Sequence record: SRR31156797_5111
Strand: one strand, 5' to 3'
DNA length: 39,182 nt
Shown here: in pieces, positions 1 through 12,160 of the stretch
How positions within the stretch are numbered: the stretch's first letter is position 1
Layout: every line of letters starts with the position of its first letter
Translations under genes and position numbers: made by a program
The notes under the pieces: model-generated
Told to the model about the DNA's origin: nothing
Seen by the model: the letters and a program-made list of their open reading frames with translations, nothing else
The model's database searches: none

Positions 1-33
1 GTTTGGACGCGGGTTCGACTCCCGCCATCTCCA
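1..33 (+). ncRNA. ssrA: tmRNA 3' end (T-arm and acceptor strand), truncated by the window start
   Basis: GTTTGGACGCGGGTTCGACTCCCGCCATCTCCA closely matches the Firmicute/Enterococcus tmRNA 3' end as I recall it (T-loop GTTCGAC, Ala-type acceptor strand ...TCTCCA). Confidence 0.88.
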
Positions 34-41
34 TTTTAAAC

Positions 42-1551: not shown

Positions 1552-1606
1552 TGAAATACAAAAGAACGACTGAACCAAAGAAGTTCAGTCGTTCTTTTGT
1601 ATTTCA
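1552..1606. terminator. Bidirectional terminator with a perfect 24-bp stem
   Basis: TGAAATACAAAAGAACGACTGAAC-caaagaa-GTTCAGTCGTTCTTTTGTATTTCA. Confidence 0.8.
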
Positions 1607-1701
1607 CTTGTCGTTGAAGAAAGATAAGAGTACTGGGTATCCCAAATAAAAGACTTCCCCAAGCTTTCATTTTCCCCAGTACTCTTCATTGCTCGTTGTT
1701 A
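1552..1701 (-). ncRNA. Candidate sRNA copy 1 (about 150 nt, GGGG-loop hairpin)
   Basis: Minus-strand TTGAAT-17-TATGAT promoter, 62-nt core shared with 11955-12016, terminator at 1552-1606. Confidence 0.6.
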
Positions 1702-1706
1702 AGATA

Positions 1707-1735
1707 ATCATAATACAAAAATGATTTTTATTCAA
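1707..1735 (-). promoter_or_regulatory. Sigma-A promoter for candidate sRNA copy 1
   Basis: -35 TTGAAT (1735-1730), 17-bp spacer, -10 TATGAT (1712-1707). Confidence 0.6.
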
Positions 1736-1925
1736 TAACTATGCTTTAAAAATAAACAAAATGCTATTTTGTGACAATTTATAGGGGTTTCACTTCATTT
1801 CTAGCTAATATTCCCTATATCTGTTTATATTCTAAATCGTTACGTGAAGCATCAGTTGATGAGATGCGATCCCTTCGATAGCGATCCTCCTTCTTTTAAA
1901 GTTTTGAATTTGAGGAAATTCAGCC

Positions 1926-1994
1926 TTGTCAATCTCGCATTCCCATGCTAACATGAATATGCAAACGTTAACATTAAAATGCACACGTGAACAT
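1926..1994 (+). promoter_or_regulatory. Sigma-A promoter plus cre site and a second LacI-like operator
   Basis: TTGTCA-17-TAACAT with TG extension; ATGCAAACGTTAACAT (1959-1974) fits the cre consensus; ATGCACACGTGAACAT lies 20 bp downstream. Confidence 0.7.
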
Positions 1995-2014
1995 TAGTTT
2001 GAGGAGGATTTTTA

Positions 2015-3115
2015 ATGGCAAAAATTACAGATGTACAAACAGCGTATTATCGGATACCTCTTCCGGAAATCATGGAAGATGCGAAGCACGGCTTACACAC
2101 CCACTTTGAAGTGCCTATCGTCAAGATCGTTACTGATGAGGGACGTGAAGGTGTGGGCTATACGTATTCTGGTGGCTTCGGTGGCGAATCGATTGCCAAA
2201 CTGATCGACAAAGAACTAAAAGCAATCCTCTTAGGGAAAGATCCAGCATGTGTGGAGGCCTTGTGGGATCAGATGAACTGGGGCATTCACTATGTTGCCA
2301 GAGGCGGTTTAGCGAGTTTCGCCATTGCGGCTTGTGATATTGCCTTATGGGACTTACGCGCGAAAAAAGCACAAGAACCCCTCTACAAACTTTTAGGCGG
2401 CGCAAGTAACAAAGTCAAATGCTATGGTGGTGCGATCGATCTAAACTTTTCTCTTGAAAAACTCTTAGCCAATAATCAAAAATATTTAGACATGGGATTA
2501 AAAGCGGTCAAAATCAAATTGGGCCAAAAAACACTTGCCGAAGATATTGCTCGAATAAAAGCGGTCAGAGAATTGATTGGTCCCGATGTTGTCTTTATGG
2601 TGGATGCCAACATGAGCTGGTCTGTTGAAAAAGCGATCAAAGCCGCCAAACTGATGGCGCCTTATGACATTTTGTTCCTTGAAGAACCAACAATCCCCGA
2701 AGATTACGAAGGCTACGCTCGTATCGCTAAAGAAGGGCAAATTGCAGTCGCAGGCGGGGAAAACTTGCGCACCCCTATTGAGTTTGCTCATATGATCAAA
2801 TATGGCAATGTCGATTTTCCACAACCCGACGCTTCCAATTGCGGTGGGATCACCGGCTGGTTGAAAATTGCTGCCTTAACACAAACAAGTAACTTATCTG
2901 TTTCTACACATGGCATGCAGGAATTACACGTCAGTCTACTGGCGGCGATGCCTAATGCTGGGTATCTTGAAATGCACAGTTTTCCAATCGATCAATACAC
3001 CACGAGACCATTAGTGATCGATCCATCCGATGGCCGTGCGATTGCACCAGAAGAACCAGGGATTGGTGTCATATTTGACTGGGAGAAACTTGCTCCTCAT
3101 AAACAACCCTTTTAA
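2015..3115 (+). CDS. Mandelate racemase/muconate lactonizing family enolase-superfamily enzyme (probable sugar-acid dehydratase)
   Basis: AACDIALWDL, KIK, DAN, EEP, GEN and catalytic His (STHG) motifs. Confidence 0.9.
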   Translation: MAKITDVQTAYYRIPLPEIMEDAKHGLHTHFEVPIVKIVTDEGREGVGYTYSGGFGGESIAKLIDKELKAILLGKDPACVEALWDQMNWGIHYVARGGLASFAIAACDIALWDLRAKKAQEPLYKLLGGASNKVKCYGGAIDLNFSLEKLLANNQKYLDMGLKAVKIKLGQKTLAEDIARIKAVRELIGPDVVFMVDANMSWSVEKAIKAAKLMAPYDILFLEEPTIPEDYEGYARIAKEGQIAVAGGENLRTPIEFAHMIKYGNVDFPQPDASNCGGITGWLKIAALTQTSNLSVSTHGMQELHVSLLAAMPNAGYLEMHSFPIDQYTTRPLVIDPSDGRAIAPEEPGIGVIFDWEKLAPHKQPF

Positions 3116-3118
3116 CTG

Positions 3119-3166
3119 AAAACCCACGATTATTTCCTTTAGGATTAGGAAATAATCGTGGGTTTT
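3119..3166. terminator. Bidirectional terminator
   Basis: Perfect 20-bp inverted repeat between convergent genes. Confidence 0.8.
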
Positions 3167-3168
3167 TA

Positions 3169-4584
3169 TTACAGAATCAATGGCTTTTCTTCAAATGGAA
3201 GCCACCGTTCATCAATAAGGGAACGATACCAAGCGGCTGATTTTTTTAATGACCGGGTCCGTTCTTCATTTAACTCAATTCGGACGAGACCATAGCGGTT
3301 CTTAAATGCATTCATAGGTGAAACACAATCGGTAAATGCCCAAAGCATATAGCCTTCGCAGTTGGCGCCTTCCTCGACGGCTTTTAGCAGCCAGTAAAGA
3401 TGTTCGGTAATAAACTGAATCCGATAATCATCTTGGACTTGACCTGTGGCATCCATATACTGTTCTTCATTTTCCCGCCCCATACCATTTTCAGTGATCA
3501 GCCATGGAATATTGCCATAATTTTCTTTAAGATAATTAGCCATATCGTACATGACCTTCGGATAGATTTCCCAGCCACGGGAGTTATTCATTTGTTTTCC
3601 TGGCAAATCAAATGTCTCATAAAACATTTCTGGATGAAATGGTGTATCCGAATGCCATTGATATCGTGGTGCCCGCACGCGTTTCGGGTAGTACTGATTG
3701 ACACCTAAGAAATCCACCGTATGGGTGCGGATCGTTTCCAAATCTTCTTCTGTCGGATCAAAGTAGATGTCATAGGTTTGGCAAAGTGTGATAAGTTCCT
3801 CTGGATAATGACCTTTGACCATTGGATCAAAAAAGATCCGGTTGAAAAAGAGATCATACATTTTTTGCGCTTTTTGATCCTCCGGTGAGGAAGAGCGTGC
3901 GTAAACCATTTCTGGATTTAGCACACAACCGATGCGCCCCTCGTAGCCCTTTTCATGATAGACAGCCACCGCTTGGGCGGACGCCAATACTTTGTGATAG
4001 TTCCAAAGCATCCATTTTTTTGTGTTTTGCTCATGGGGCCAGCGGATCGCATCGAGATAGCAACGAGTCTGAATAACGATCGGCTCATTGAAGGTAACCC
4101 ACTGTTTGACTCGATCACCGTAACGCTCGAAGGCGATTTCGGCATAACGGGTATATAGATCGACCACTTTCCGCGAGCTCCAGCCATCATAGGCATCCAT
4201 CAAACTAGCTGGCAGTTCATAATGTTCCAAACAAAGCATCGGTTCGACGCCAGCCGCAAGCAATTGGTCGATAAGCTGATCGATATGAGCAGCATAGTCT
4301 TCGTCAACGATCAGCTGTTCATGGTCGGTAAAGAAGCGCGCCCAGTTGATCGATGTTCGGTAATGGGTCAAATGAACCTCCTGCATCAGTTCAACATCCT
4401 CTGAAAACTTTTCCATAAAATTCGTCGCAACAGCCGGCCCGTAGCCATTATGCCAGACAAAGCGTTCTTCTTTGTACCAGCGGTCGAGATACGAATCTTG
4501 CCCTTCTTTCTTTCCTTGCCAGCCTTCTGTCTGCCAAGCAGACGAAGCAGCCCCTAAAATAAATGTTTCAGGTATTTTTACCAT
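3169..4584 (-). CDS. Glycoside hydrolase family 1 (6-phospho-beta-glucosidase-like)
   Basis: TFNEP and ITENG catalytic motifs; next to PTS IIC. Confidence 0.93.
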   Translation of the reverse strand: MVKIPETFILGAASSAWQTEGWQGKKEGQDSYLDRWYKEERFVWHNGYGPAVATNFMEKFSEDVELMQEVHLTHYRTSINWARFFTDHEQLIVDEDYAAHIDQLIDQLLAAGVEPMLCLEHYELPASLMDAYDGWSSRKVVDLYTRYAEIAFERYGDRVKQWVTFNEPIVIQTRCYLDAIRWPHEQNTKKWMLWNYHKVLASAQAVAVYHEKGYEGRIGCVLNPEMVYARSSSPEDQKAQKMYDLFFNRIFFDPMVKGHYPEELITLCQTYDIYFDPTEEDLETIRTHTVDFLGVNQYYPKRVRAPRYQWHSDTPFHPEMFYETFDLPGKQMNNSRGWEIYPKVMYDMANYLKENYGNIPWLITENGMGRENEEQYMDATGQVQDDYRIQFITEHLYWLLKAVEEGANCEGYMLWAFTDCVSPMNAFKNRYGLVRIELNEERTRSLKKSAAWYRSLIDERWLPFEEKPLIL

Positions 4585-4599
4585 TTTTTTAAAACTCCT

Positions 4600-5904
4600 T
4601 TATGCAACTTCATTGGTCGTACGATTCATTACCAAAACAAAAGGTAGATAGATCAAAATCGCCACGACAATACAGATCACTTGCGTGATCACAGCCCCGA
4701 TATCCCCAGCAGTAGCTAGATAAGCATTGACGATCGGTGGCATCGGCCATGGGACCATTACCACCGCTTTAGCGGCAAAGCCTAGACTTGTCGCCACGTA
4801 CCCAATCGTTCCTGTTACTAACGGTGTCAGGATAAAGGGAATCGCCAAAATGGGATTCAGCATAATTGGCATTCCGAAGATCACTGGCTCATTGATATTG
4901 AAAATCCCAGGTGCTAATGACAATTTAGTGATTTGGCGCATGTCCTCCCGTTTACCGACGATCAAAATTGCAATCAGCAAACCAATCGTCACGCCAGAGC
5001 CGCCCATACTCATATACATATCCCAAAACGGCATCGTAATGATATTGGGTACTTCTTTCCCAGCTTCAAAAGCTTCCGTGTTGACGGCGATCGCTGCCAG
5101 CAACAATGGTTCTCGAATGGGTTTGACCATCTGGTTCCCATGAATCCCGATGACCCAAAAGACTTGTGCGATAAACATCAACAACAAGATGCCTGGTAAG
5201 CCTTGGACGATTCCTTCCAGTGGTCGTTGGACGACATTGTAGATGATATCGTAGGCATACATCCCTGTGAGTGCTTTGATAGCAAAACCAGCGGTGGCGA
5301 TGATGGTCACGGTGAAAATCGTTGGAAACAATGCCGAAAAACTTGCCGAAACATTCCCTGGAACACTATCAGGCATCGTGATCTGCAGCCGTTTTTGTCT
5401 TCCTAGCCACGCATAAAGCTCGATGGAAACGATTGCAACGAACATGCCTAAAAATAGACCTTTCGTGTCCGTGTATTGCTTAGCCAGCACGTTTTCGGCA
5501 ACCACCGTCGCATCTTCGTGCAAAAATTCAAAGATCATTGGATTAACAGAAAGATAAGACATCACGGCGATGATTCCTGGAAAGACCCCAGAAATCTTAT
5601 TTAGTTTTGCTAGCTCAATCCCAATCAAAAACACTGCATAGATCGTTAAGAAACTCAATGTCACATAACTGACCGCAGATGAGATTGGTTTTAAACTTTC
5701 TAAAAAGCGCAGTACCTCGATTTGTGCCAATCCATTTTCAGCATCAAAAACCATTGCTGAAAACAATGTACCAAATGCCCCTGTAATGATTACTGGAATC
5801 AAAGCAGCAAAGGCATTTTTAATGACCATGATGTAGCGTAAATTGTTGATCCTGTTGGCAAATTTTCCCAAAACGTCAGCGAGTCGATCCATAAATCCTT
5901 GCAT
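4600..5904 (-). CDS. PTS lactose/cellobiose-family IIC component
   Basis: Multi-TM protein with FWVIGIHG, GGSG and FNINEPVIFGMPIMLNP motifs. Confidence 0.93.
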   Translation of the reverse strand: MQGFMDRLADVLGKFANRINNLRYIMVIKNAFAALIPVIITGAFGTLFSAMVFDAENGLAQIEVLRFLESLKPISSAVSYVTLSFLTIYAVFLIGIELAKLNKISGVFPGIIAVMSYLSVNPMIFEFLHEDATVVAENVLAKQYTDTKGLFLGMFVAIVSIELYAWLGRQKRLQITMPDSVPGNVSASFSALFPTIFTVTIIATAGFAIKALTGMYAYDIIYNVVQRPLEGIVQGLPGILLLMFIAQVFWVIGIHGNQMVKPIREPLLLAAIAVNTEAFEAGKEVPNIITMPFWDMYMSMGGSGVTIGLLIAILIVGKREDMRQITKLSLAPGIFNINEPVIFGMPIMLNPILAIPFILTPLVTGTIGYVATSLGFAAKAVVMVPWPMPPIVNAYLATAGDIGAVITQVICIVVAILIYLPFVLVMNRTTNEVA

Positions 5905-6074
5905 AAAACTCCCTCCTATACCTTATTCTTCAATTGATGGAAAACGATTACATTACAAATGTAATTCATTTATTGAAGAATGTAAACGCAGGAAAAGCCT
6001 TTAAAACAGGGTATGTAAAGCTCCACGTTTACATACTTCGTTTTATCACTTATTATTATTTTGAGGTGAAGCAA

Positions 6075-6776
6075 ATGGCGAACTACCATGACATCGCTGC
6101 CGATTTACGGAGCAAAATCAATCACGGGTTTTACGAAGAAGAGAAAAAATTGCCGAAGCAATCCGAACTGGCTGCGGATTATCAAACGAGCCGCGTGACG
6201 ATTCAAAAAGCATTGAATATTTTACAAATGGAAGGCATTATTTACGGTAAAAAAGGCACGGGTACGTTTATCAGGGATTCCTATTCAACCTTCGATTACA
6301 ACGCCAAGATCAATCGCGGGCTGACCAAGCGCCTTGGAGAAACAGGAAAGATCACCAGCAAGATCATTTCTTTTGCCATTCTTTTTCCCGATGAGAAAGA
6401 ACAAGAAAAACTAAACATTCGCAGTGACCAGCAAATTTATGATATCGTTCGTTTGCGTCTATTTGACGATATACCCGTTGTTTTAGAATATACCATCATG
6501 CCGCTTCATGTCATTCCTGGCATTACCGAAGAAGTCTTAGCCTCTTCCGTCTATAGCTACATCACGAACCAACTCCACTCCTCGATTGGAACATCTGTCC
6601 GTCGTATCAAAGCGGATCGTACAGACACCTACGACCAGCAATACTTAGCTTGTGCTGCCACCGATCCCATTTTAGAAGTGGAACAAACGGTTTACCTCGG
6701 CGATGGGACGCCTTTTGAATTTTCCCAATCACGGCACCGCTATGATATGGGGGATTTTATTGTTGTAAATAATTAA
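6075..6776 (+). CDS. GntR (HutC/UTRA) transcriptional regulator
   Basis: LPKQSELAADYQTSRVTIQKAL HTH and UTRA C-terminus; SD GAGGTG before the ATG at 6075. Confidence 0.9.
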   Translation: MANYHDIAADLRSKINHGFYEEEKKLPKQSELAADYQTSRVTIQKALNILQMEGIIYGKKGTGTFIRDSYSTFDYNAKINRGLTKRLGETGKITSKIISFAILFPDEKEQEKLNIRSDQQIYDIVRLRLFDDIPVVLEYTIMPLHVIPGITEEVLASSVYSYITNQLHSSIGTSVRRIKADRTDTYDQQYLACAATDPILEVEQTVYLGDGTPFEFSQSRHRYDMGDFIVVNN

Positions 6777-6825
6777 TACGCTGCGTATCGATCCTCACTC
6801 AGAGGCACTCGATACGCAGCGTATT
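6775..6825. terminator. Bidirectional terminator
   Basis: AATACGCTGCGTATCGA...TCGATACGCAGCGTATT. Confidence 0.75.
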
Positions 6826-7596
6826 TTACTTAAAATACTGCTGATAGACTGTTTGACCAATTTCTCTTAGCCAACTGATCCCTCGGCCACTACCGGCTTT
6901 ATCATAGGAAAATGCCGCAATGATGATCGTCGTTTCATTGGCTTGTAAATATGCTACATCGTGTTCGATGCGGTCAAGACGACCTGTCTTATTAAAAATG
7001 CGGCAAGAAGGCTGCGCAGTTTCAGCAAAATTCCCCGCTAATCCATCTTGAAATTGCTGCTGATTTAAAGGTGAAAATCCTAGTGCAGCTTCTTCTCGTT
7101 CCACACACCTTAGTAGCAGTTTGGCAGCCACCGAGGGTGTCAAGCGGTTCTCTTTGTCTTTGATCGGTCGCATCATATACCGTTCAAATTGGATCTCCGG
7201 CTCCTGAATCCATGCCTGAAGCGTGGGCAACCCTACTAAGTCCAATAGTACATTGGTCGCAGTATTATCAGATACGGCGATCATTGCCGTGAGAAGTTCA
7301 CTGATGGTCCAACCTTTCTTCTGAGGAAAAAGACGGATCACCCCAGCACCCCCTGTCAGATCAACAGGGCTCACACAAATTACCTGTTGGGGATCGATCT
7401 TTTTTTCGATGATTTGTTCAAGATAATACGCGTACAAAACAAGCTTACTAATACTCGCTGCCGAAAACGACTTTTGACCCTGATAGTCAACAAGACATTC
7501 CGTTGGCGTACCGATCCATACCCCCATTTCCAACGTTGCCTGGTAGTTTTTTAGAATAGGATCAATTGCTACACGCAAGTCATCTTTTCCCATCAA
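6826..7596 (-). CDS. Cytoplasmic serine hydrolase with class A beta-lactamase fold (putative peptidase)
   Basis: SxxK (SISK), SDN and KTG motifs; no signal peptide. Confidence 0.85.
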   Translation of the reverse strand: MMGKDDLRVAIDPILKNYQATLEMGVWIGTPTECLVDYQGQKSFSAASISKLVLYAYYLEQIIEKKIDPQQVICVSPVDLTGGAGVIRLFPQKKGWTISELLTAMIAVSDNTATNVLLDLVGLPTLQAWIQEPEIQFERYMMRPIKDKENRLTPSVAAKLLLRCVEREEAALGFSPLNQQQFQDGLAGNFAETAQPSCRIFNKTGRLDRIEHDVAYLQANETTIIIAAFSYDKAGSGRGISWLREIGQTVYQQYFK

Positions 7597-7629
7597 ATGC
7601 CCCTTTCCTTACGATCATGAAAAGAATGT

Positions 7630-8541
7630 TCATGAGTATTCCTGTGATTCATTCGGCTGGTTTTGCCAATAACGCGCCACAACTGCGAGTTCTGGTTCAT
7701 AATTAGAGCCAGTGATTTTGGTTTTCATGACCCGTGACCCAGGTGTTCTTGAATGAATCATTTCGTCATCCCCCAAATATAGACCGACATGATGGACTTC
7801 GCCTTTTCCTTCTTCATAAGCAAACAACAGCAGATCCCCTGGTTGTGCCTGACTGTAAGGTACGATGTTTGCTTGTTGTGCTTGCTCGATCGTATCTCGG
7901 GGGATTAAAATACCATGAAGTCGATGCAGCGAATACATGAATCCAGAACAGTCAAAGCCACTGCCGCTAATGCCTGCCCAGACATAGGGCTGGTTTATAA
8001 ATTGTTCTGCCAAGGCTATTATTTTTTCTGGGAGCTTTGCCCATGTGTCCGATAGGACGTGAGCAAAAGCTTTAGCGATCGTTGCTGGTCCATTAGGCGT
8101 AGCCACTTGATAGGAATCTGCGGTTTCCCCAACAAGTGGTAAAACTGTTCCAAAAGAAACAAGTCGTGTGGTCGAGTCAAAAACAAGCACGGCTTCTTTT
8201 GCAATCACACCAATCCTTCTTTTGGCTGTTGCATAGTCTGGTGACAATGGCTTCAATACCTCGTTCGGCAGATAACCCGGATACCCGAGTGGGTGTTTAT
8301 TGCTTATTTGATCCAAGACGATCACATGGGACCAACCATCCGTTTGGGCGATGACTTCTACAATCGTCCCATATAATACTTCGGAGTCCACTAAGCTTTC
8401 CTGATAAAGCCGCATCGTATCTTCATCAGTCAAAAAAGTGTGCAGTGCTTCTAAAGGAAATGCTTTGATTTTTGCTAGTACTTTGTTTTCTTTGGGTTCC
8501 TTCCATAAGAAGGAAGAGCCAGCCTGAACAATTTGTTTCAT
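7630..8541 (-). CDS. NlpC/P60 (C40) peptidase, YkfC-like gamma-D-glutamyl dipeptidyl-peptidase
   Basis: PYVWAG...GFDCSG, HHVGLY, MIHS; SH3-like N-terminus; no signal peptide; SD GAGGAG before the ATG at 8541. Confidence 0.88.
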   Translation of the reverse strand: MKQIVQAGSSFLWKEPKENKVLAKIKAFPLEALHTFLTDEDTMRLYQESLVDSEVLYGTIVEVIAQTDGWSHVIVLDQISNKHPLGYPGYLPNEVLKPLSPDYATAKRRIGVIAKEAVLVFDSTTRLVSFGTVLPLVGETADSYQVATPNGPATIAKAFAHVLSDTWAKLPEKIIALAEQFINQPYVWAGISGSGFDCSGFMYSLHRLHGILIPRDTIEQAQQANIVPYSQAQPGDLLLFAYEEGKGEVHHVGLYLGDDEMIHSRTPGSRVMKTKITGSNYEPELAVVARYWQNQPNESQEYS

Positions 8542-8562
8542 CTTTGCTCCTCTCATAACTGT

Positions 8563-9636
8563 TTATTCGTTGATTCCTAGTCCGATGCGTTCGGTGACGC
8601 TCAAGCTTCCTGGACGCTGAAGAATCCCTTGCATTTCAGGGGAAGTCGTTTGGGTCTCCCACATAAAAGGAACATCCAGATCATAAAATTGGACATCCGC
8701 CATCCCCAAGGCAAAATGGGCGGCTGCAGCCATTCCCCCATACCCTTCAATCATCGAACCGACCATCACCGGCATTTGATGCTCTTTTGCCAATTGATAA
8801 ATTTTTTGTCCCTCTTTGATCCCGCCGCTTTTCATCAATTTAATGTTCATATAATCGCAGCAGTTTTCAGCAATCAAACGTTTGGCATCCTCATAGGAAA
8901 AAAGACTTTCGTCTGCCATGATCGGAATCGTCGTCCGAGCAGTCACATAGCTGAGTCCAGCAAAATCATTGGCTTTGACGGGTTGCTCAACAAACTCGAT
9001 CGGAATGTCTTGCCATTGGTCTAAAATCTGCACCGCTTCTTCTTTGGTCCAGCCTTGATTGGCATCAATTCGAAAGGGGATCTTTCCTGCCAAGCGTTCA
9101 TTGATGCAGCGAATTTTCGCAACCTCCTCTTCGATCGCACCTACCCCTAGTTTGATTTTCAAGGAGCGAAATCCCGCCTGGACTTTCGCTTTGGCATCAT
9201 GCAGCATCTGCTCCTGTGAACCAACACTGATCGTATAGTCGGTTGTCAGTGTATTGGCAGAACCACCTAAATAGCGGTAAAGAGGCAAGTTTGCCGCTTT
9301 TGCCAGTGCATCATGCAACGCGATATCAATCGCCGCTTTAGGGCTCGTATGATGCTGGATCAACGCATGAAGCTCATCCATTACCAGCAATTGGGCATCT
9401 ACCTTTCTGCCTAACAGGAACGGGGCAAAGACAGTTTCGATATCTGTTAAAATACTTTCTTTTGTATCACCGGTGATCACTTCGGTAGGTGCTGCTTCTC
9501 CGATGCCAACGATCCCATTGTCAAAAGAAAGCAACACTCGAATCACTTCGACGGCGTGCACTTCTCTGAGCGCCGTTTTAAACGGTGCATTCAGCTGGAT
9601 CGGAATTCGTTTGGTTTCAACTGCTGTGATTATCAT
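8563..9636 (-). CDS. Dipeptide epimerase (L-Ala-D/L-Glu epimerase, YkfB-like)
   Basis: PFKTALR, KIK, DANQGW, EQP, ADES, NIKLMKSGG and DLD motifs. Confidence 0.9.
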   Translation of the reverse strand: MIITAVETKRIPIQLNAPFKTALREVHAVEVIRVLLSFDNGIVGIGEAAPTEVITGDTKESILTDIETVFAPFLLGRKVDAQLLVMDELHALIQHHTSPKAAIDIALHDALAKAANLPLYRYLGGSANTLTTDYTISVGSQEQMLHDAKAKVQAGFRSLKIKLGVGAIEEEVAKIRCINERLAGKIPFRIDANQGWTKEEAVQILDQWQDIPIEFVEQPVKANDFAGLSYVTARTTIPIMADESLFSYEDAKRLIAENCCDYMNIKLMKSGGIKEGQKIYQLAKEHQMPVMVGSMIEGYGGMAAAAHFALGMADVQFYDLDVPFMWETQTTSPEMQGILQRPGSLSVTERIGLGINE

Positions 9637-9650
9637 TCATGTTCCCCCTA

Positions 9651-9719
9651 AAAAGAAAAGCCGTTCTTATCTAGCTGGAATGAATGATTCCTCTTCACTG
9701 CTAGATAAAGAACGGCTTT
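9651..9719 (-). terminator. Terminator/attenuator hairpin directly before the epimerase RBS
   Basis: Minus strand AAAGCCGTTCTTTATCTAGC...GCTAGATAAGAACGGCTTT followed by a U-tract. Confidence 0.6.
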
Positions 9720-9823
9720 ATTCCTTGTTCTCAAGTTGCTGAACGCTCGAATCGCGTTCTTCTTTTCTGCAGTACTGTTTGACTACGTCAGTCGGTAGAT
9801 GTATGAAAAAATTGTTTTTTTAC

Positions 9824-11485
9824 TTATTCTTCGACAAATACATTTTTATAATCATAGGCAGCACCGACACTATGAACGATAAGTCCTTTGATCTTTGATG
9901 ACCGCAGATGTGCTTCTGCACTTTGGAAAAGCGGTATAACACCCAAATCTTCATTTAAGATTTTTTCTGCTTCCACCATATTTTCCCAACGGGCTTCTGG
10001 GTCGTTGGCATTTTCATTGGATGCTTGTTCGATCAATTGGTCGTAGTCATCATTTAGCCATTTCCCACGATTGTAGGAACTGTCTTTTTTGAACAATTCC
10101 AAAAAGTTGATTGGATCTGCATAGTCTCCGATCCAGTTGTTCATGACCATCTCAAAATCGCCGCTATTTGAACGATCCAAGCGCACAGAAAAAGGAACGT
10201 TTGTGACTTCGACAGTCAATCCATCCAATGTTTGCTGCAAGGTTCCTTGAATGTATTCCGCCATTTTTTTCGATTGGTCGGTATCTGAGGTCAGCAACTC
10301 GAAAGACAACGTATCGATCCCCAGCTCAGCTTTGGCCTTTTCCCAATACTCTTGGGCTTTTTCTTCGTCATAGTCTAACGTCGTTGCCGCATCCTTAACA
10401 AAGTCAGCTTTTGTCTCTGGATTGAAGGCTAGGTCAGAAGGAACAAAACCGACAGCCGGTAACGAGCCGTTGCCTAAAATATTGTCAACGATTTGTTGTC
10501 GATTCATACTATACGAAATGGCTTGCCGCAGATTCGTATTTCGAAAAGGCGAATCTTCTGGTGCTTGATTCATTTCTAAATACTGAGTGGTTGCACTAGG
10601 CTGAACAATGTAATCAGCATGGTTCACATTCTGCATCGCCAATTCACCGCTCAAGATAATGTCATCGGCTTGTCCGCTTTCGTACAAGTTATAAGCAGTC
10701 GATGAGTCTTTCACGACATCAAAATTAACTTTTTCAAGTTTAACTGAATCGGCATCCCAATAATCCGGATTTTTTTCCAATGACCACTGGATGTCGGTGC
10801 CTGGGCCTGCATAATTGGTCAATAGGAATGGTCCATTGTACGCCGCGTTTTCACTTGTTAAGGCGTATTGATCACCAAATTCCTCCACGACACGTTCATT
10901 TTGTGGGAAAAAGGTTGGAAAAGCCAGTAAAGATAAAAAGTAAGGCGTCGGTTTTTCTAACGTGATTGTCAATTCATGGTCATTGACTGCTTCGATTCCT
11001 AACTCGCTTTTATCCAGCGTGCCATCTGAAATAGCCGACGCATTTTTAATGGGTGCCAGCATATAGGCATAATTAGAAGCTGTAGCTGGATCAACCGTTC
11101 GCTGCCAACTGAAAACATAATCAGCCGCTGTAACTGGATCACCATTCGACCATTTTGCCTCTTCTCGCAGTGAAATGGTGTAGGTCAGCCCATCTTCACT
11201 AACTTCAGCGTCTTCACTTGCCCCAGCAATCATGGGAACATTTTTCTCATCCAAGCGATAAAGGCCTTCATAGGCATTGTTCAGAGTAATAAAGCTATAA
11301 GAGTCGGTTGCTAAAGAAATATCGGCACTGCCCATCTCCGCCGAAAATTGCACATTGATCACTTGCTCTGCGGAAGAAGCTGCTGATGAATCCGTCTCGT
11401 TTTCTTGATTGCCATTTTGACAAGCTGCTAAAAAAAAGCTGCTTAGTAACACAAGCGATACTGCATATTTGCTGCGTTTCCCCAT
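9824..11485 (-). CDS. oppA: Peptide ABC transporter substrate-binding lipoprotein (OppA/MppA family)
   Basis: Lipobox LAAC; KWSNGDPVTAADYVFSW SBP5 motif; WIGDYADP. Confidence 0.9.
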   Translation of the reverse strand: MGKRSKYAVSLVLLSSFFLAACQNGNQENETDSSAASSAEQVINVQFSAEMGSADISLATDSYSFITLNNAYEGLYRLDEKNVPMIAGASEDAEVSEDGLTYTISLREEAKWSNGDPVTAADYVFSWQRTVDPATASNYAYMLAPIKNASAISDGTLDKSELGIEAVNDHELTITLEKPTPYFLSLLAFPTFFPQNERVVEEFGDQYALTSENAAYNGPFLLTNYAGPGTDIQWSLEKNPDYWDADSVKLEKVNFDVVKDSSTAYNLYESGQADDIILSGELAMQNVNHADYIVQPSATTQYLEMNQAPEDSPFRNTNLRQAISYSMNRQQIVDNILGNGSLPAVGFVPSDLAFNPETKADFVKDAATTLDYDEEKAQEYWEKAKAELGIDTLSFELLTSDTDQSKKMAEYIQGTLQQTLDGLTVEVTNVPFSVRLDRSNSGDFEMVMNNWIGDYADPINFLELFKKDSSYNRGKWLNDDYDQLIEQASNENANDPEARWENMVEAEKILNEDLGVIPLFQSAEAHLRSSKIKGLIVHSVGAAYDYKNVFVEE

Positions 11486-11542
11486 TTCTACTCATCCCCT
11501 TCTAACATTCAGATAATTCAAAAAATTCTGTTTGTTGTACCG

Positions 11543-11604
11543 AGTTTACCGCATGTTTATGCAGCCTGTCAATTTAACACGACCAAAAAATGTAAGAGGT
11601 TACA
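11543..11604 (-). promoter_or_regulatory. oppA promoter with an upstream cre-like site
   Basis: TTGACA (11572-11567), 18 bp, TAAACT (11548-11543); TGTAAGAGGTTACA at 11591-11604. Confidence 0.55.
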
Positions 11605-11699
11605 TAGTTGTGTCAGAAGTTCTCTTCTGAATGTTAAAATTAGAAAAGAGCGACTTTATGCTAAATATCGTTGAAAGGAGTAGTTCCAAGAAACCACAC

Positions 11700-11733
11700 A
11701 AAAAAGTTCTGATCTCCTAGCGATCAGAACTTT
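11700..11733 (-). terminator. Intrinsic terminator
   Basis: AAAGTTCTGATC-N8-GATCAGAACTTT with a U-tract on the minus strand. Confidence 0.7.
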
Positions 11734-11804
11734 GGCTGCTCTCTTATACATCATTTCGAAGAAAAATGGATAAAAAAACTCCCACTATTTTCCTAACATT
11801 TCGC

Positions 11805-12033
11805 AAAAAAAAGAAGACACAAATTTTGTCTTCATAGTGCTTTCTCAGAACCTTCCCACTTTTTCGGCTTTCACCTCAAGGAACAAAAGAAATCTCCTCA
11901 GAAAGTAAAATAAACGTATCTATTTTAAAATGAGAGTGGTACACTAAACAAACGAAGAGTACTGCACGTGAGAAAAGAAAGACTTCCCCAAGTATCCATT
12001 TTCTCCAATACTCTTCGGACTCTTCAGTACGTA
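11805..12033 (-). ncRNA. Candidate sRNA copy 2 (about 230 nt)
   Basis: TTGAAC-16-TATAAT minus-strand promoter; 62-nt core homologous to 1626-1687; terminator GAAGACA-N-TGTCTTC plus U-tract at 11805-11833. Confidence 0.6.
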
Positions 12034-12066
12034 TATTAATTATACGTACTTTTTTCATTTGTTCAA
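12026..12066 (-). promoter_or_regulatory. Promoter of candidate sRNA copy 2 with an overlapping perfect palindrome
   Basis: -35 at 12066-12061, -10 at 12044-12039; AGTACGTATA-ttaat-TATACGTACT (12026-12050). Confidence 0.6.
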
Positions 12067-12125: not shown

Positions 12126-12160
12126 GCTAATTGACAATCATTCTCAATTAGCGCTATACT
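12126..12160 (+). promoter_or_regulatory. Fur box overlapping a sigma-A promoter
   Basis: TGACAATCATTCTCA (7-1-7 Fur-like) inside a longer palindrome; TTGACA-18-TATACT. Confidence 0.75.

Follow-up and report, generated by a model that had tools for sequence, protein, structure and literature searches.

Do two short repeated segments in a stretch of enterococcal DNA encode regulatory RNAs, and which gene might such RNAs regulate? The stretch, sequence record SRR31156797_5111 with a length of 39,182 nucleotides (nt), is called the window hereafter. It contains two intergenic cores, A at 1626-1687 and B at 11955-12016, which align without gaps at 48 of 62 positions. An original prediction, made from the letters of the window alone, had regarded them as unannotated, paralogous small RNAs (sRNAs) that act as sponges or protein decoys. 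The cores are members of a larger Enterococcaceae family, located mostly at the cargo ends of prophages, on plasmids and in islands. Our analysis points to an RNA family that is real and expressed, with the mRNA of spx as a specific and testable candidate target.

Identification of the RNA family

The match between the cores stood apart in the window: on both strands, the next-best gapless 62-nt match to core A had 32 of 62 identities, and CTTGGGGAAG was present at two places only, the two cores, both on the minus strand. Folding reproduced for both cores the closing stems and the CUU-GGGG-AAG mini-hairpin as originally described. The z-scores of the G-rich strand were -6.0 for A and -4.2 for B, those of the C-rich strand were equally strong (-6.0 and -4.5). 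The minus-strand promoters reported with the cores were present (Table 1); a promoter scan by itself performed close to chance (three found versus 2.8 expected, four versus 1.8). Core A is flanked by an ACT-domain gene and a mandelate-racemase-family gene, core B by the genes of an oligopeptide-binding protein and an ABM-family monooxygenase. The proposed search of Rfam 15 yielded no match at gathering score in the window; the best hits in E-value mode were below threshold and unrelated. Weak Rfam hits of family loci were rejected as generic hairpins, and at six loci of relatives the matches at gathering score were tRNAs only. The nearest genome (G001) had 80 % of 31-mers in common with the window, and named records with the same loci belonged to Enterococcus casseliflavus, E. 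innesii and close species.

R1, a covariance model built from A, B and one further copy, matched 26 times in 13 of 126 Enterococcaceae genomes; one match (in G121) lacked the loop. The new copies were situated behind phage endolysin genes, in islands and, on a plasmid of E. gallinarum, beside a cold-shock gene. Scanning viral contigs for the pattern retrieved 75 loci, 47 of which had the full layout on reading. Units also occurred in arrays of five (L135), four (L141) or three (L143 and L110), where the spacing of the hairpins went down to ~160 nt. A broader covariance model (R2) had matches in 58 of the 126 genomes, an overcount because weak hits were often plain terminators: among the lower-ranked hits inspected, 6 of 21 and 11 of 16 were plain terminators without GGGGAA. 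Copies were also missed, since R2 scored 28-40 candidates per genome. No genome had more than nine model matches, counted on both strands. True members were read in the genera g1, g2, g3, g4, g5, g9 and g13. Outside the Enterococcaceae, R2 had matches in 9 of 131 genomes; the loop was present only in G163, on a plasmid-like sequence nearly identical to a plasmid copy. In a genome-wide pattern scan, the layout was seen at 12 of 38 loci, all of them Enterococcus records, and was lacking at the remaining 26; two queries against the INPHARED phages gave no match. Rather than a two-copy chromosomal pair, this is a large and mostly mobile family, and most units encode an antisense RNA as well.

In each unit, two convergent promoters enclose a single hairpin whose UUGGGGAAGU loop is invariant. 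Before unit, pairing and context-rank counts were made, the rows L087, L172 and L246 (viral or off-family) and rows with a second G-tract were removed. In the set, which was selected on a 7-nt part of the loop, the loop TT-GGGGAAGT was constant and the stems were free in length and sequence. Across 38 aligned units, 12 of 18 base pairs had changed on both sides (0 of 500 shuffles), a figure that overstates the covariation because the structure was drawn on these same, related sequences. Wobbles in the loop stem favoured the G-rich strand, with 20 G-U against one A-C. The GGGG was unpaired in the predicted fold (probability 0.99-1.0), and some units had two G-tracts. The -35 and -10 elements of the G-strand promoter were recognized in 59 of 68 distinct units. 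On the opposite strand, an extended -10 element was located 2-12 nt from the stem in 48 of the 68 units, compared to 3 of 145 ordinary terminators of the same loci. A promoter-less repeat of the repetitive extragenic palindromic (REP) or miniature inverted-repeat transposable element (MITE) kind, which had been named as a possible refutation, was rejected on the low number of matches per genome, the divergent stems and the frequent G-strand promoter.

Transcription of related units

Promoter words derived from R2 hits were used against the differential RNA sequencing start-site table of E. faecium AUS0004. Convergent starts, 73-75 nt apart, were recorded at four loci, with steps on the G- and C-rich strands of 22170/711, 22079/711, 46640/583 and 14953/465 (PMC7724050, Table S1). 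At these four copies the G-rich strand was 31-80 times stronger. The loci are listed as sRNA_036, sRNA_059, sRNA_078 and sRNA_080, new candidates in the accessible parts of that report (Michaux et al. 2020, PMC7724050). Their membership in the family follows from upstream 51-mers that match R2 hits and from the fitting start spacing. sRNA_078 has 86 nt and rank 10, and sRNA059 and sRNA078 are on the sheet of Northern-validated RNAs (PMC7724050); by its sequence, the probe for sRNA_078 is antisense to the G-tracts. Of six promoter words from the E. faecium group, four had no row in the AUS0004 table. In E. faecalis V583, G-strand starts were found at two units; the promoter words tried revealed no C-strand starts, and for a third small hairpin likewise none. 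None of the 61 candidates in Table 1 of PMC5593968 covers the four G-strand starts. By analogy to the E. faecium relatives, the window copies are expected to give G-rich RNAs, and copy B a C-rich RNA. The original view of paralogous, promoter-bearing, structured RNAs on the G-rich strand agrees with the mapped starts and the Northern probe. "Unannotated" holds for the lack of an Rfam family, but not for those E. faecium members that are already in print as uncharacterised sRNAs.

These transcripts bear on another explanation, that the element is no regulator at all. It might be a bidirectional terminator or a DNA repeat with incidental promoters, as the near-perfect outer inverted repeat, the U-tracts and the place after endolysin genes would allow, or a micro-ORF (open reading frame) encoding M-x-x-W-G-S, for which A and B have an in-frame ATG ahead of the loop. 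Every unit has its own promoter, however, the arrays with ~160-nt spacing contain nothing to terminate, and the primary transcripts are abundant; the mapped starts already largely refute a mere terminator or repeat. Single-base indels among the orthologues of copy B disrupt the possible reading frame and most units lack the ATG, in agreement with the non-coding nature stated in the original prediction. We consider this group of explanations very improbable. A type I toxin-antitoxin system was rejected, as no neighbouring ORF was common to the loci and the unit spacing leaves no room for one.

Candidate target of the G-rich RNA

Spx binds RNA polymerase and acts in Firmicutes as a global regulator of redox stress. 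The family loop is the exact complement of nt 16-26 of the spx coding sequence, codons 6-9; the target gene was identified as Spx by NF002459 (234 bits). This match emerged among the genomic sites of CTTCCCCAA in three genomes of three genera, 72 of 76 of which were inspected. Two features were conserved among the sites, one at the start of spx, the other at the 5' junction of pre-tRNA-Ser(GCU). An intergenic C-rich RNA shared by the genomes was absent from the 72 sites, the shorter seed UCCCC not having been searched. This result bears on the sponge that had been proposed, in which a G-rich RNA of the RosA/RsaI type titrates one or more C-rich host sRNAs. The exposed GGGG of the predicted fold would suit a sponge, as would the very high abundance of the G-rich RNA and the second G-tract of some units, which recalls the two G-rich regions of RosA in the accessible text of PMC8216469. 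The conserved stretch, however, comprises 10-11 nt and matches spx exactly. Because a shared C-rich sRNA with CTTCCCCAA was not found among these sites and spx holds a conserved exact complement, an mRNA target is better supported than titration of sRNAs, and we regard the sponge as unlikely.

By hand count, ACTTCCCC was kept in the spx genes of 116 of 124 Enterococcaceae genomes with a match, and the full 11-nt complement of the loop in 83 of 124, including all eight genomes of the window's genus. Second spx paralogues code for the same amino acids, and ACTTCCCC was counted by hand in 2 of 19; among the matches listed for other Lactobacillales outside the Enterococcaceae, the hand count was 2 of 121, with seven further matches unlisted. 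In 46 orthologues with 57 conserved degenerate codons, codons 6, 7 and 9 were the sole ones with a single codon at a frequency of at least 0.9. The site was predicted to be mostly unpaired. Cis pairing of the site with the ribosome-binding site of spx itself was rejected as an explanation: its median probability was 0.04, with values above 0.5 in 5 of 41 cases. Pairing energies of -8 kcal/mol or better with the spx mRNA of the nearest genome were computed for 60 of 70 units (A -9.4, B -12.3), compared to 2 of 70 with an spx paralogue and 0 of 70 with an spx lacking the site. When 188 genomic contexts of CTTCCCCAA were ranked by contiguous pairing to the family, 11 of 12 spx sites stood above all 149 sites classed as other. 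In several phage units of the window's genus the pairing was extended by GUG opposite CAC, and one E. faecalis unit had a 15-nt pairing with its own spx type.

An invariant loop on variable stems, tandem motifs and an additive copy number would also be expected of a decoy for an RNA-binding protein, comparable to CsrB, with KhpA/B or a defence nuclease reading UUGGGGAAG as possible ligands. E. faecalis KhpB pulled down precursors of tRNA-Ser and tRNA-Ile, but its three validated sRNAs, judged by their names in the accessible part of the report, are other RNAs (PMC10117718). A protein ligand would moreover leave the frozen spx codons unexplained, unless the complementary strand were bound. A decoy appears quite improbable to us.

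Another alternative, in which the second conserved feature may take part, is an RNA-only toxin-antitoxin system similar to SdsR/RyeA. The C-rich RNA would be harmful, acting on G-rich ribosome-binding sites or on the leader or 5' junction of the single pre-tRNA-Ser(GCU), the G-rich RNA in its 30-80-fold excess would neutralise it, and G-only units such as copy A would be orphan antitoxins. Opposite overlapping transcripts with one strand in excess, mobile location and arrays are consistent with such a system, and the loop was identical to positions -2 to +8 of pre-tRNA-Ser(GCU) in all 17 Enterococcaceae genomes matched (17 of 21). Net pairing with the folded pre-tRNA amounted to only -5.4 kcal/mol, however, the tRNA contexts ranked 28-93 of 188, and an identical tRNA start is common in families in which the cassette was not found. 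Among 32 viral loci there was no sister cassette with a GGAGAAG loop, and the one loop common to all units would lead to cross-neutralisation. We judge this proposal unlikely, to the same degree as the sponge. The single tRNA-Ser(GCU) gene itself (L281 1419-1508, minus strand; L284 1502-1591, plus strand) starts with GGGGAAG, a start common in Lactobacillales, and ends with CTTCTCC, resulting in a G3-U70 wobble. G3-U70 is the usual alanine identity pair.

Several observations weigh against spx as the target of the family. Site and RNA co-occur loosely: in genomes with the site, an exact TTGGGGAAGT hairpin was found in only 2-3 of 10, and in genomes without the site, one weaker hairpin was found in 1 of 5. 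The synonymous constraint in spx may therefore have another, older cause, the family merely matching it. The constraint is wider than the family detected. Either divergent members escaped detection, or something else maintains the site, and the family makes use of it or has no more than a resemblance to it. Since genomes compared are kin, they are not independent. In many genomes of genus g3, a CCT causes a mismatch in the duplex, and the four g3 units read had no compensating change. Within the ranking, one coding site (L496, a member by a loose rule) stood above spx, and the palindrome of the loop itself favours any site with AAGT. With its position at +16 to +26, the spx site is at the margin of the initiation footprint. 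In the outer stem, wobbles comprised 14 G-U and 22 A-C without preference for the G-rich strand; such a mixture is as expected if both strands are transcribed. Finally, the accessible tables have no spx annotation on the top three IntaRNA targets published for sRNA078 and sRNA059 (PMC7724050).

Proposed mechanism

On balance, we lean towards a mechanism in which spx is regulated through a loop-loop kiss with the G-rich RNA, while the weakly expressed C-rich antisense RNA serves as a built-in target mimic. The unit is a two-promoter RNA cassette. From the strong promoter, an RNA of 85-100 nt would be made that consists of a short 5' tail and one long hairpin, which also acts as terminator; at its apex, a GGGG tetraloop would be presented on an RCUU/AAGU mini-stem. 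This loop may kiss the CCCC tetraloop of a mirror mini-hairpin, ACUU-CCCC-AAGU, at nt 16-27 of the spx mRNA, and the kiss could then zip into a duplex of 10-16 bp. Spx synthesis would most likely be lowered, by hindered initiation or by RNase cleavage. An activation of spx is conceivable too, yet the site pairs little with the ribosome-binding site, and repression appears likelier. The weak opposite promoter would yield a C-rich RNA that carries the spx site and could set a threshold as cis-encoded target mimic. With one to five units on a prophage, plasmid or island, the dose would vary with copy number.

A bolder variant, which we hold to be rather unlikely, describes the cassette as an RNA-only conflict module of enterococcal mobile elements. 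The G-loop RNA would lower Spx, the C-loop RNA would mimic the spx site and pair with the 5' junction of pre-tRNA-Ser(GCU), and loss or shut-off of the G-strand promoter would harm the cell; phage arrays and G-only chromosomal copies could then be moves of addiction and anti-addiction or of counter-defence.

The two copies in the window

Table 1. Positions of promoters, predicted RNAs and associated elements of copies A and B in the window
Feature	Position	Strand	Remark
Copy A, G-strand sigma-A-type promoter TTGAAT-17-TATGAT	1707..1735	-	layout as in 59/68 distinct family units
Copy A, predicted G-rich RNA: 5' tail, 12-bp closing stem 1626-1686, apical loop	1615..1700	-	70.6 bits with R2
Copy A, invariant loop CUUGGGGAAGU	1653..1663	-	exact complement of spx mRNA nt 16-26; GGGG predicted unpaired
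25-bp perfect inverted repeat in the gap between the ACT-domain gene and copy A	1552..1606	.	at the place of the antisense promoter of other units
Copy B, G-strand promoter TTGAAC-16-TATAAT, start predicted at ~12032	12039..12066	-	kept in orthologues of the genus, one with TTTAAA/TATAGT
Copy B, predicted G-rich RNA of ~90 nt with closing stem (11954-12018), an apical loop and a U-rich tail	11941..12032	-	68.8 bits with R2
Copy B, invariant loop CUUGGGGAAGU	11982..11992	-	would form 12 contiguous pairs with the nearest genome's spx mRNA
Copy B, antisense promoter: conserved TATCTATTT box (11917), extended -10 TGGTACACT (11937-11945)	11917..11945	+	family feature; active in four E. faecium copies
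Copy B, predicted C-rich antisense RNA, ~105 nt: hairpin, ACUUCCCCAAGU loop (equal to the spx site), terminator	11952..12057	+	presumed from relatives

Copy A was found in three genomes. Its start was placed at ~1700 by analogy to the E. faecium starts, which lie 7 nt after the -10 element, and an RNA of ~86 nt is predicted; with readthrough into the hairpin at 1552-1606 the size would be ~150 nt, so that the length originally estimated for A is still tenable. The inverted repeat forming that hairpin is likely a bidirectional terminator. It occurred at a single locus in two of five genomes searched and hence is not dispersed. An extended -10 element on the C-rich strand was absent from copy A and its orthologues, and we propose, as part of the spx mechanism, that copy A may be a more recent, G-only unit. 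A weaker Fur-like word at 1700-1716 overlaps the -10 element. At the start of the window (1-35, plus strand), 1.6 kb from copy A, there is what we take to be the 3' end of a transfer-messenger RNA (tmRNA) gene; ARAGORN detected no whole tmRNA gene there. A Cro/C1-type helix-turn-helix gene follows at 360-989. This start is likely the remnant of a prophage or island at a usual phage attachment site. The E. faecium sRNA_078 is also close to tmRNA, starting ~740 nt past it.

Copy B was present in six of eight genomes of the genus, between the oppA-like gene and the ABM gene or the neighbour of the latter. The duplex of its loop with spx was computed at -20.8 kcal/mol, or a net of about -12 to -14 kcal/mol after opening costs. 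The original estimate of ~230 nt, which relied on a downstream terminator at 11833-11813, is less likely than ~85-100 nt, because this terminator has no counterpart in the three most distant orthologues aligned and a U-tract follows the core hairpin in relatives. Core B is bracketed by an extended -10 element and a terminator on the plus strand, both missed in the original prediction; the terminator (12026-12057) overlaps the -10 element of the G-strand promoter. Two ant metatranscriptome contigs end at 11934-11935, but a third run spans the place and the ends are not evidence of a terminus. Within the mechanism proposed above, copy B, which has both promoters, may represent a chromosomal unit that became domesticated. 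Many units, e.g., the window at 12026-12050 as well as L092 and L098, have at their G-strand start a short palindrome (CAACATGCA, TGCGTGCA, GTACGTATA...TATACGTAC), an operator or a small hairpin.

In the vicinity of copy B, a sequence at 12131-12160 (plus strand) over the promoter of the ABM-family gene resembles a Fur box, and the gene product had a weak hit to a haem-degrading family. On the minus strand, 6826-11485 contains the oppA-like gene followed by genes for an enolase-superfamily epimerase, an NlpC/P60 peptidase and a beta-lactamase-fold protein; by gene content, this is likely an operon for murein-peptide recycling.

Further observations were made at family loci. The exact B-type pattern, searched over the Enterococcaceae, had mostly coding matches (nine genomes outside the genus and one inside), rejected as W-G-S codons in presumably glcU-like and oppC-like genes. 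TGGGGAAGT is located early in the coding region of the presumed glcU-like genes in 7 of 126 genomes by the exact pattern (L013-L016, L021, L024, L028), possibly a site for the C-rich strand. In L232, genes for a cold-shock protein, a tRNA-Met and a presumably ferrochelatase-like protein are flanked by three small hairpins (1410-1470, 1570-1661, 2963-3054), two of them family units and the third with a TTGGGGAAA loop. Cold-shock genes recurred near units in L052, L053, L059 and L206. Near E. faecium-group units and beside tRNA genes, L203 and L205 contain another type of hairpin, in which the loop region is TTTTGGGGAAAGACTCTAGG. In L505 (G085 C20, ~806-815), one spacer of a CRISPR-like array, with repeats recognized by eye, starts with CTTGGGGAAGT.

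Comparison with known RNA systems

Among the papers listed in literature searches, mostly without subscription journals, there was no description of the family and none of an enterococcal sRNA targeting spx. New are the family, the sense-antisense cassette, the mobile arrays and the spx site; individual members are already in print as uncharacterised RNAs. In the accessible parts of PMC7724050 the four E. faecium members are listed singly and not grouped as a family, the opposite starts are termed orphan, and the annotated top targets do not include spx. Should the proposed mechanism hold, a core regulator of stress and virulence would be tuned, through the copy number of an 86-nt RNA, by the prophages and plasmids that E. 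faecium, E. faecalis and species of the E. casseliflavus group carry. Some of the most abundant uncharacterised sRNAs of E. faecium would gain a function and the frozen run of synonymous spx codons an explanation. This suggests mobile DNA tuning the stress response of its host by RNA alone.

The following comparisons refer to the accessible parts of the reports cited. Rli31 of Listeria (RF01465; PMC4959528) is a long hairpin with a C-rich apical loop and a terminator, similar to the predicted C-strand RNA of copy B. Identity with Rli31 was rejected: the C strand of copy A scored 25.8 bits against a gathering score of 80, and copy B and 19 other loci had no hit. RosA of Bacillus subtilis and RsaI of Staphylococcus aureus share with the family the stand-alone RNA with an accessible GGGG; RosA differs by its ~229 nt, its single copy, the control by CcpA and the binding of C-rich sRNAs (PMC8216469), for which no 9-mer partner was found here in three genomes. 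SdsR/RyeA, a type VIII toxin-antitoxin system, also consists of two small RNAs from opposite strands of one locus (PMC8610362). The likeness is one of layout; the enterococcal family is multicopy, mobile and built on one symmetrical hairpin. Another parallel is the CJnc190/CJnc180 pair of Campylobacter jejuni, in which a trans-acting sRNA pairs with mRNA by G/C-rich sequences and is antagonized by a cis-encoded antisense RNA (PMC8687705); for the enterococcal family these roles are proposed here only, and the polarity would be reversed. Features of this kind are present: transcripts from both strands were mapped in relatives, are expected for copy B and are not expected for copy A, which lacks the antisense -10 element, and a conserved trans mRNA complement exists, with weak co-occurrence, in spx.

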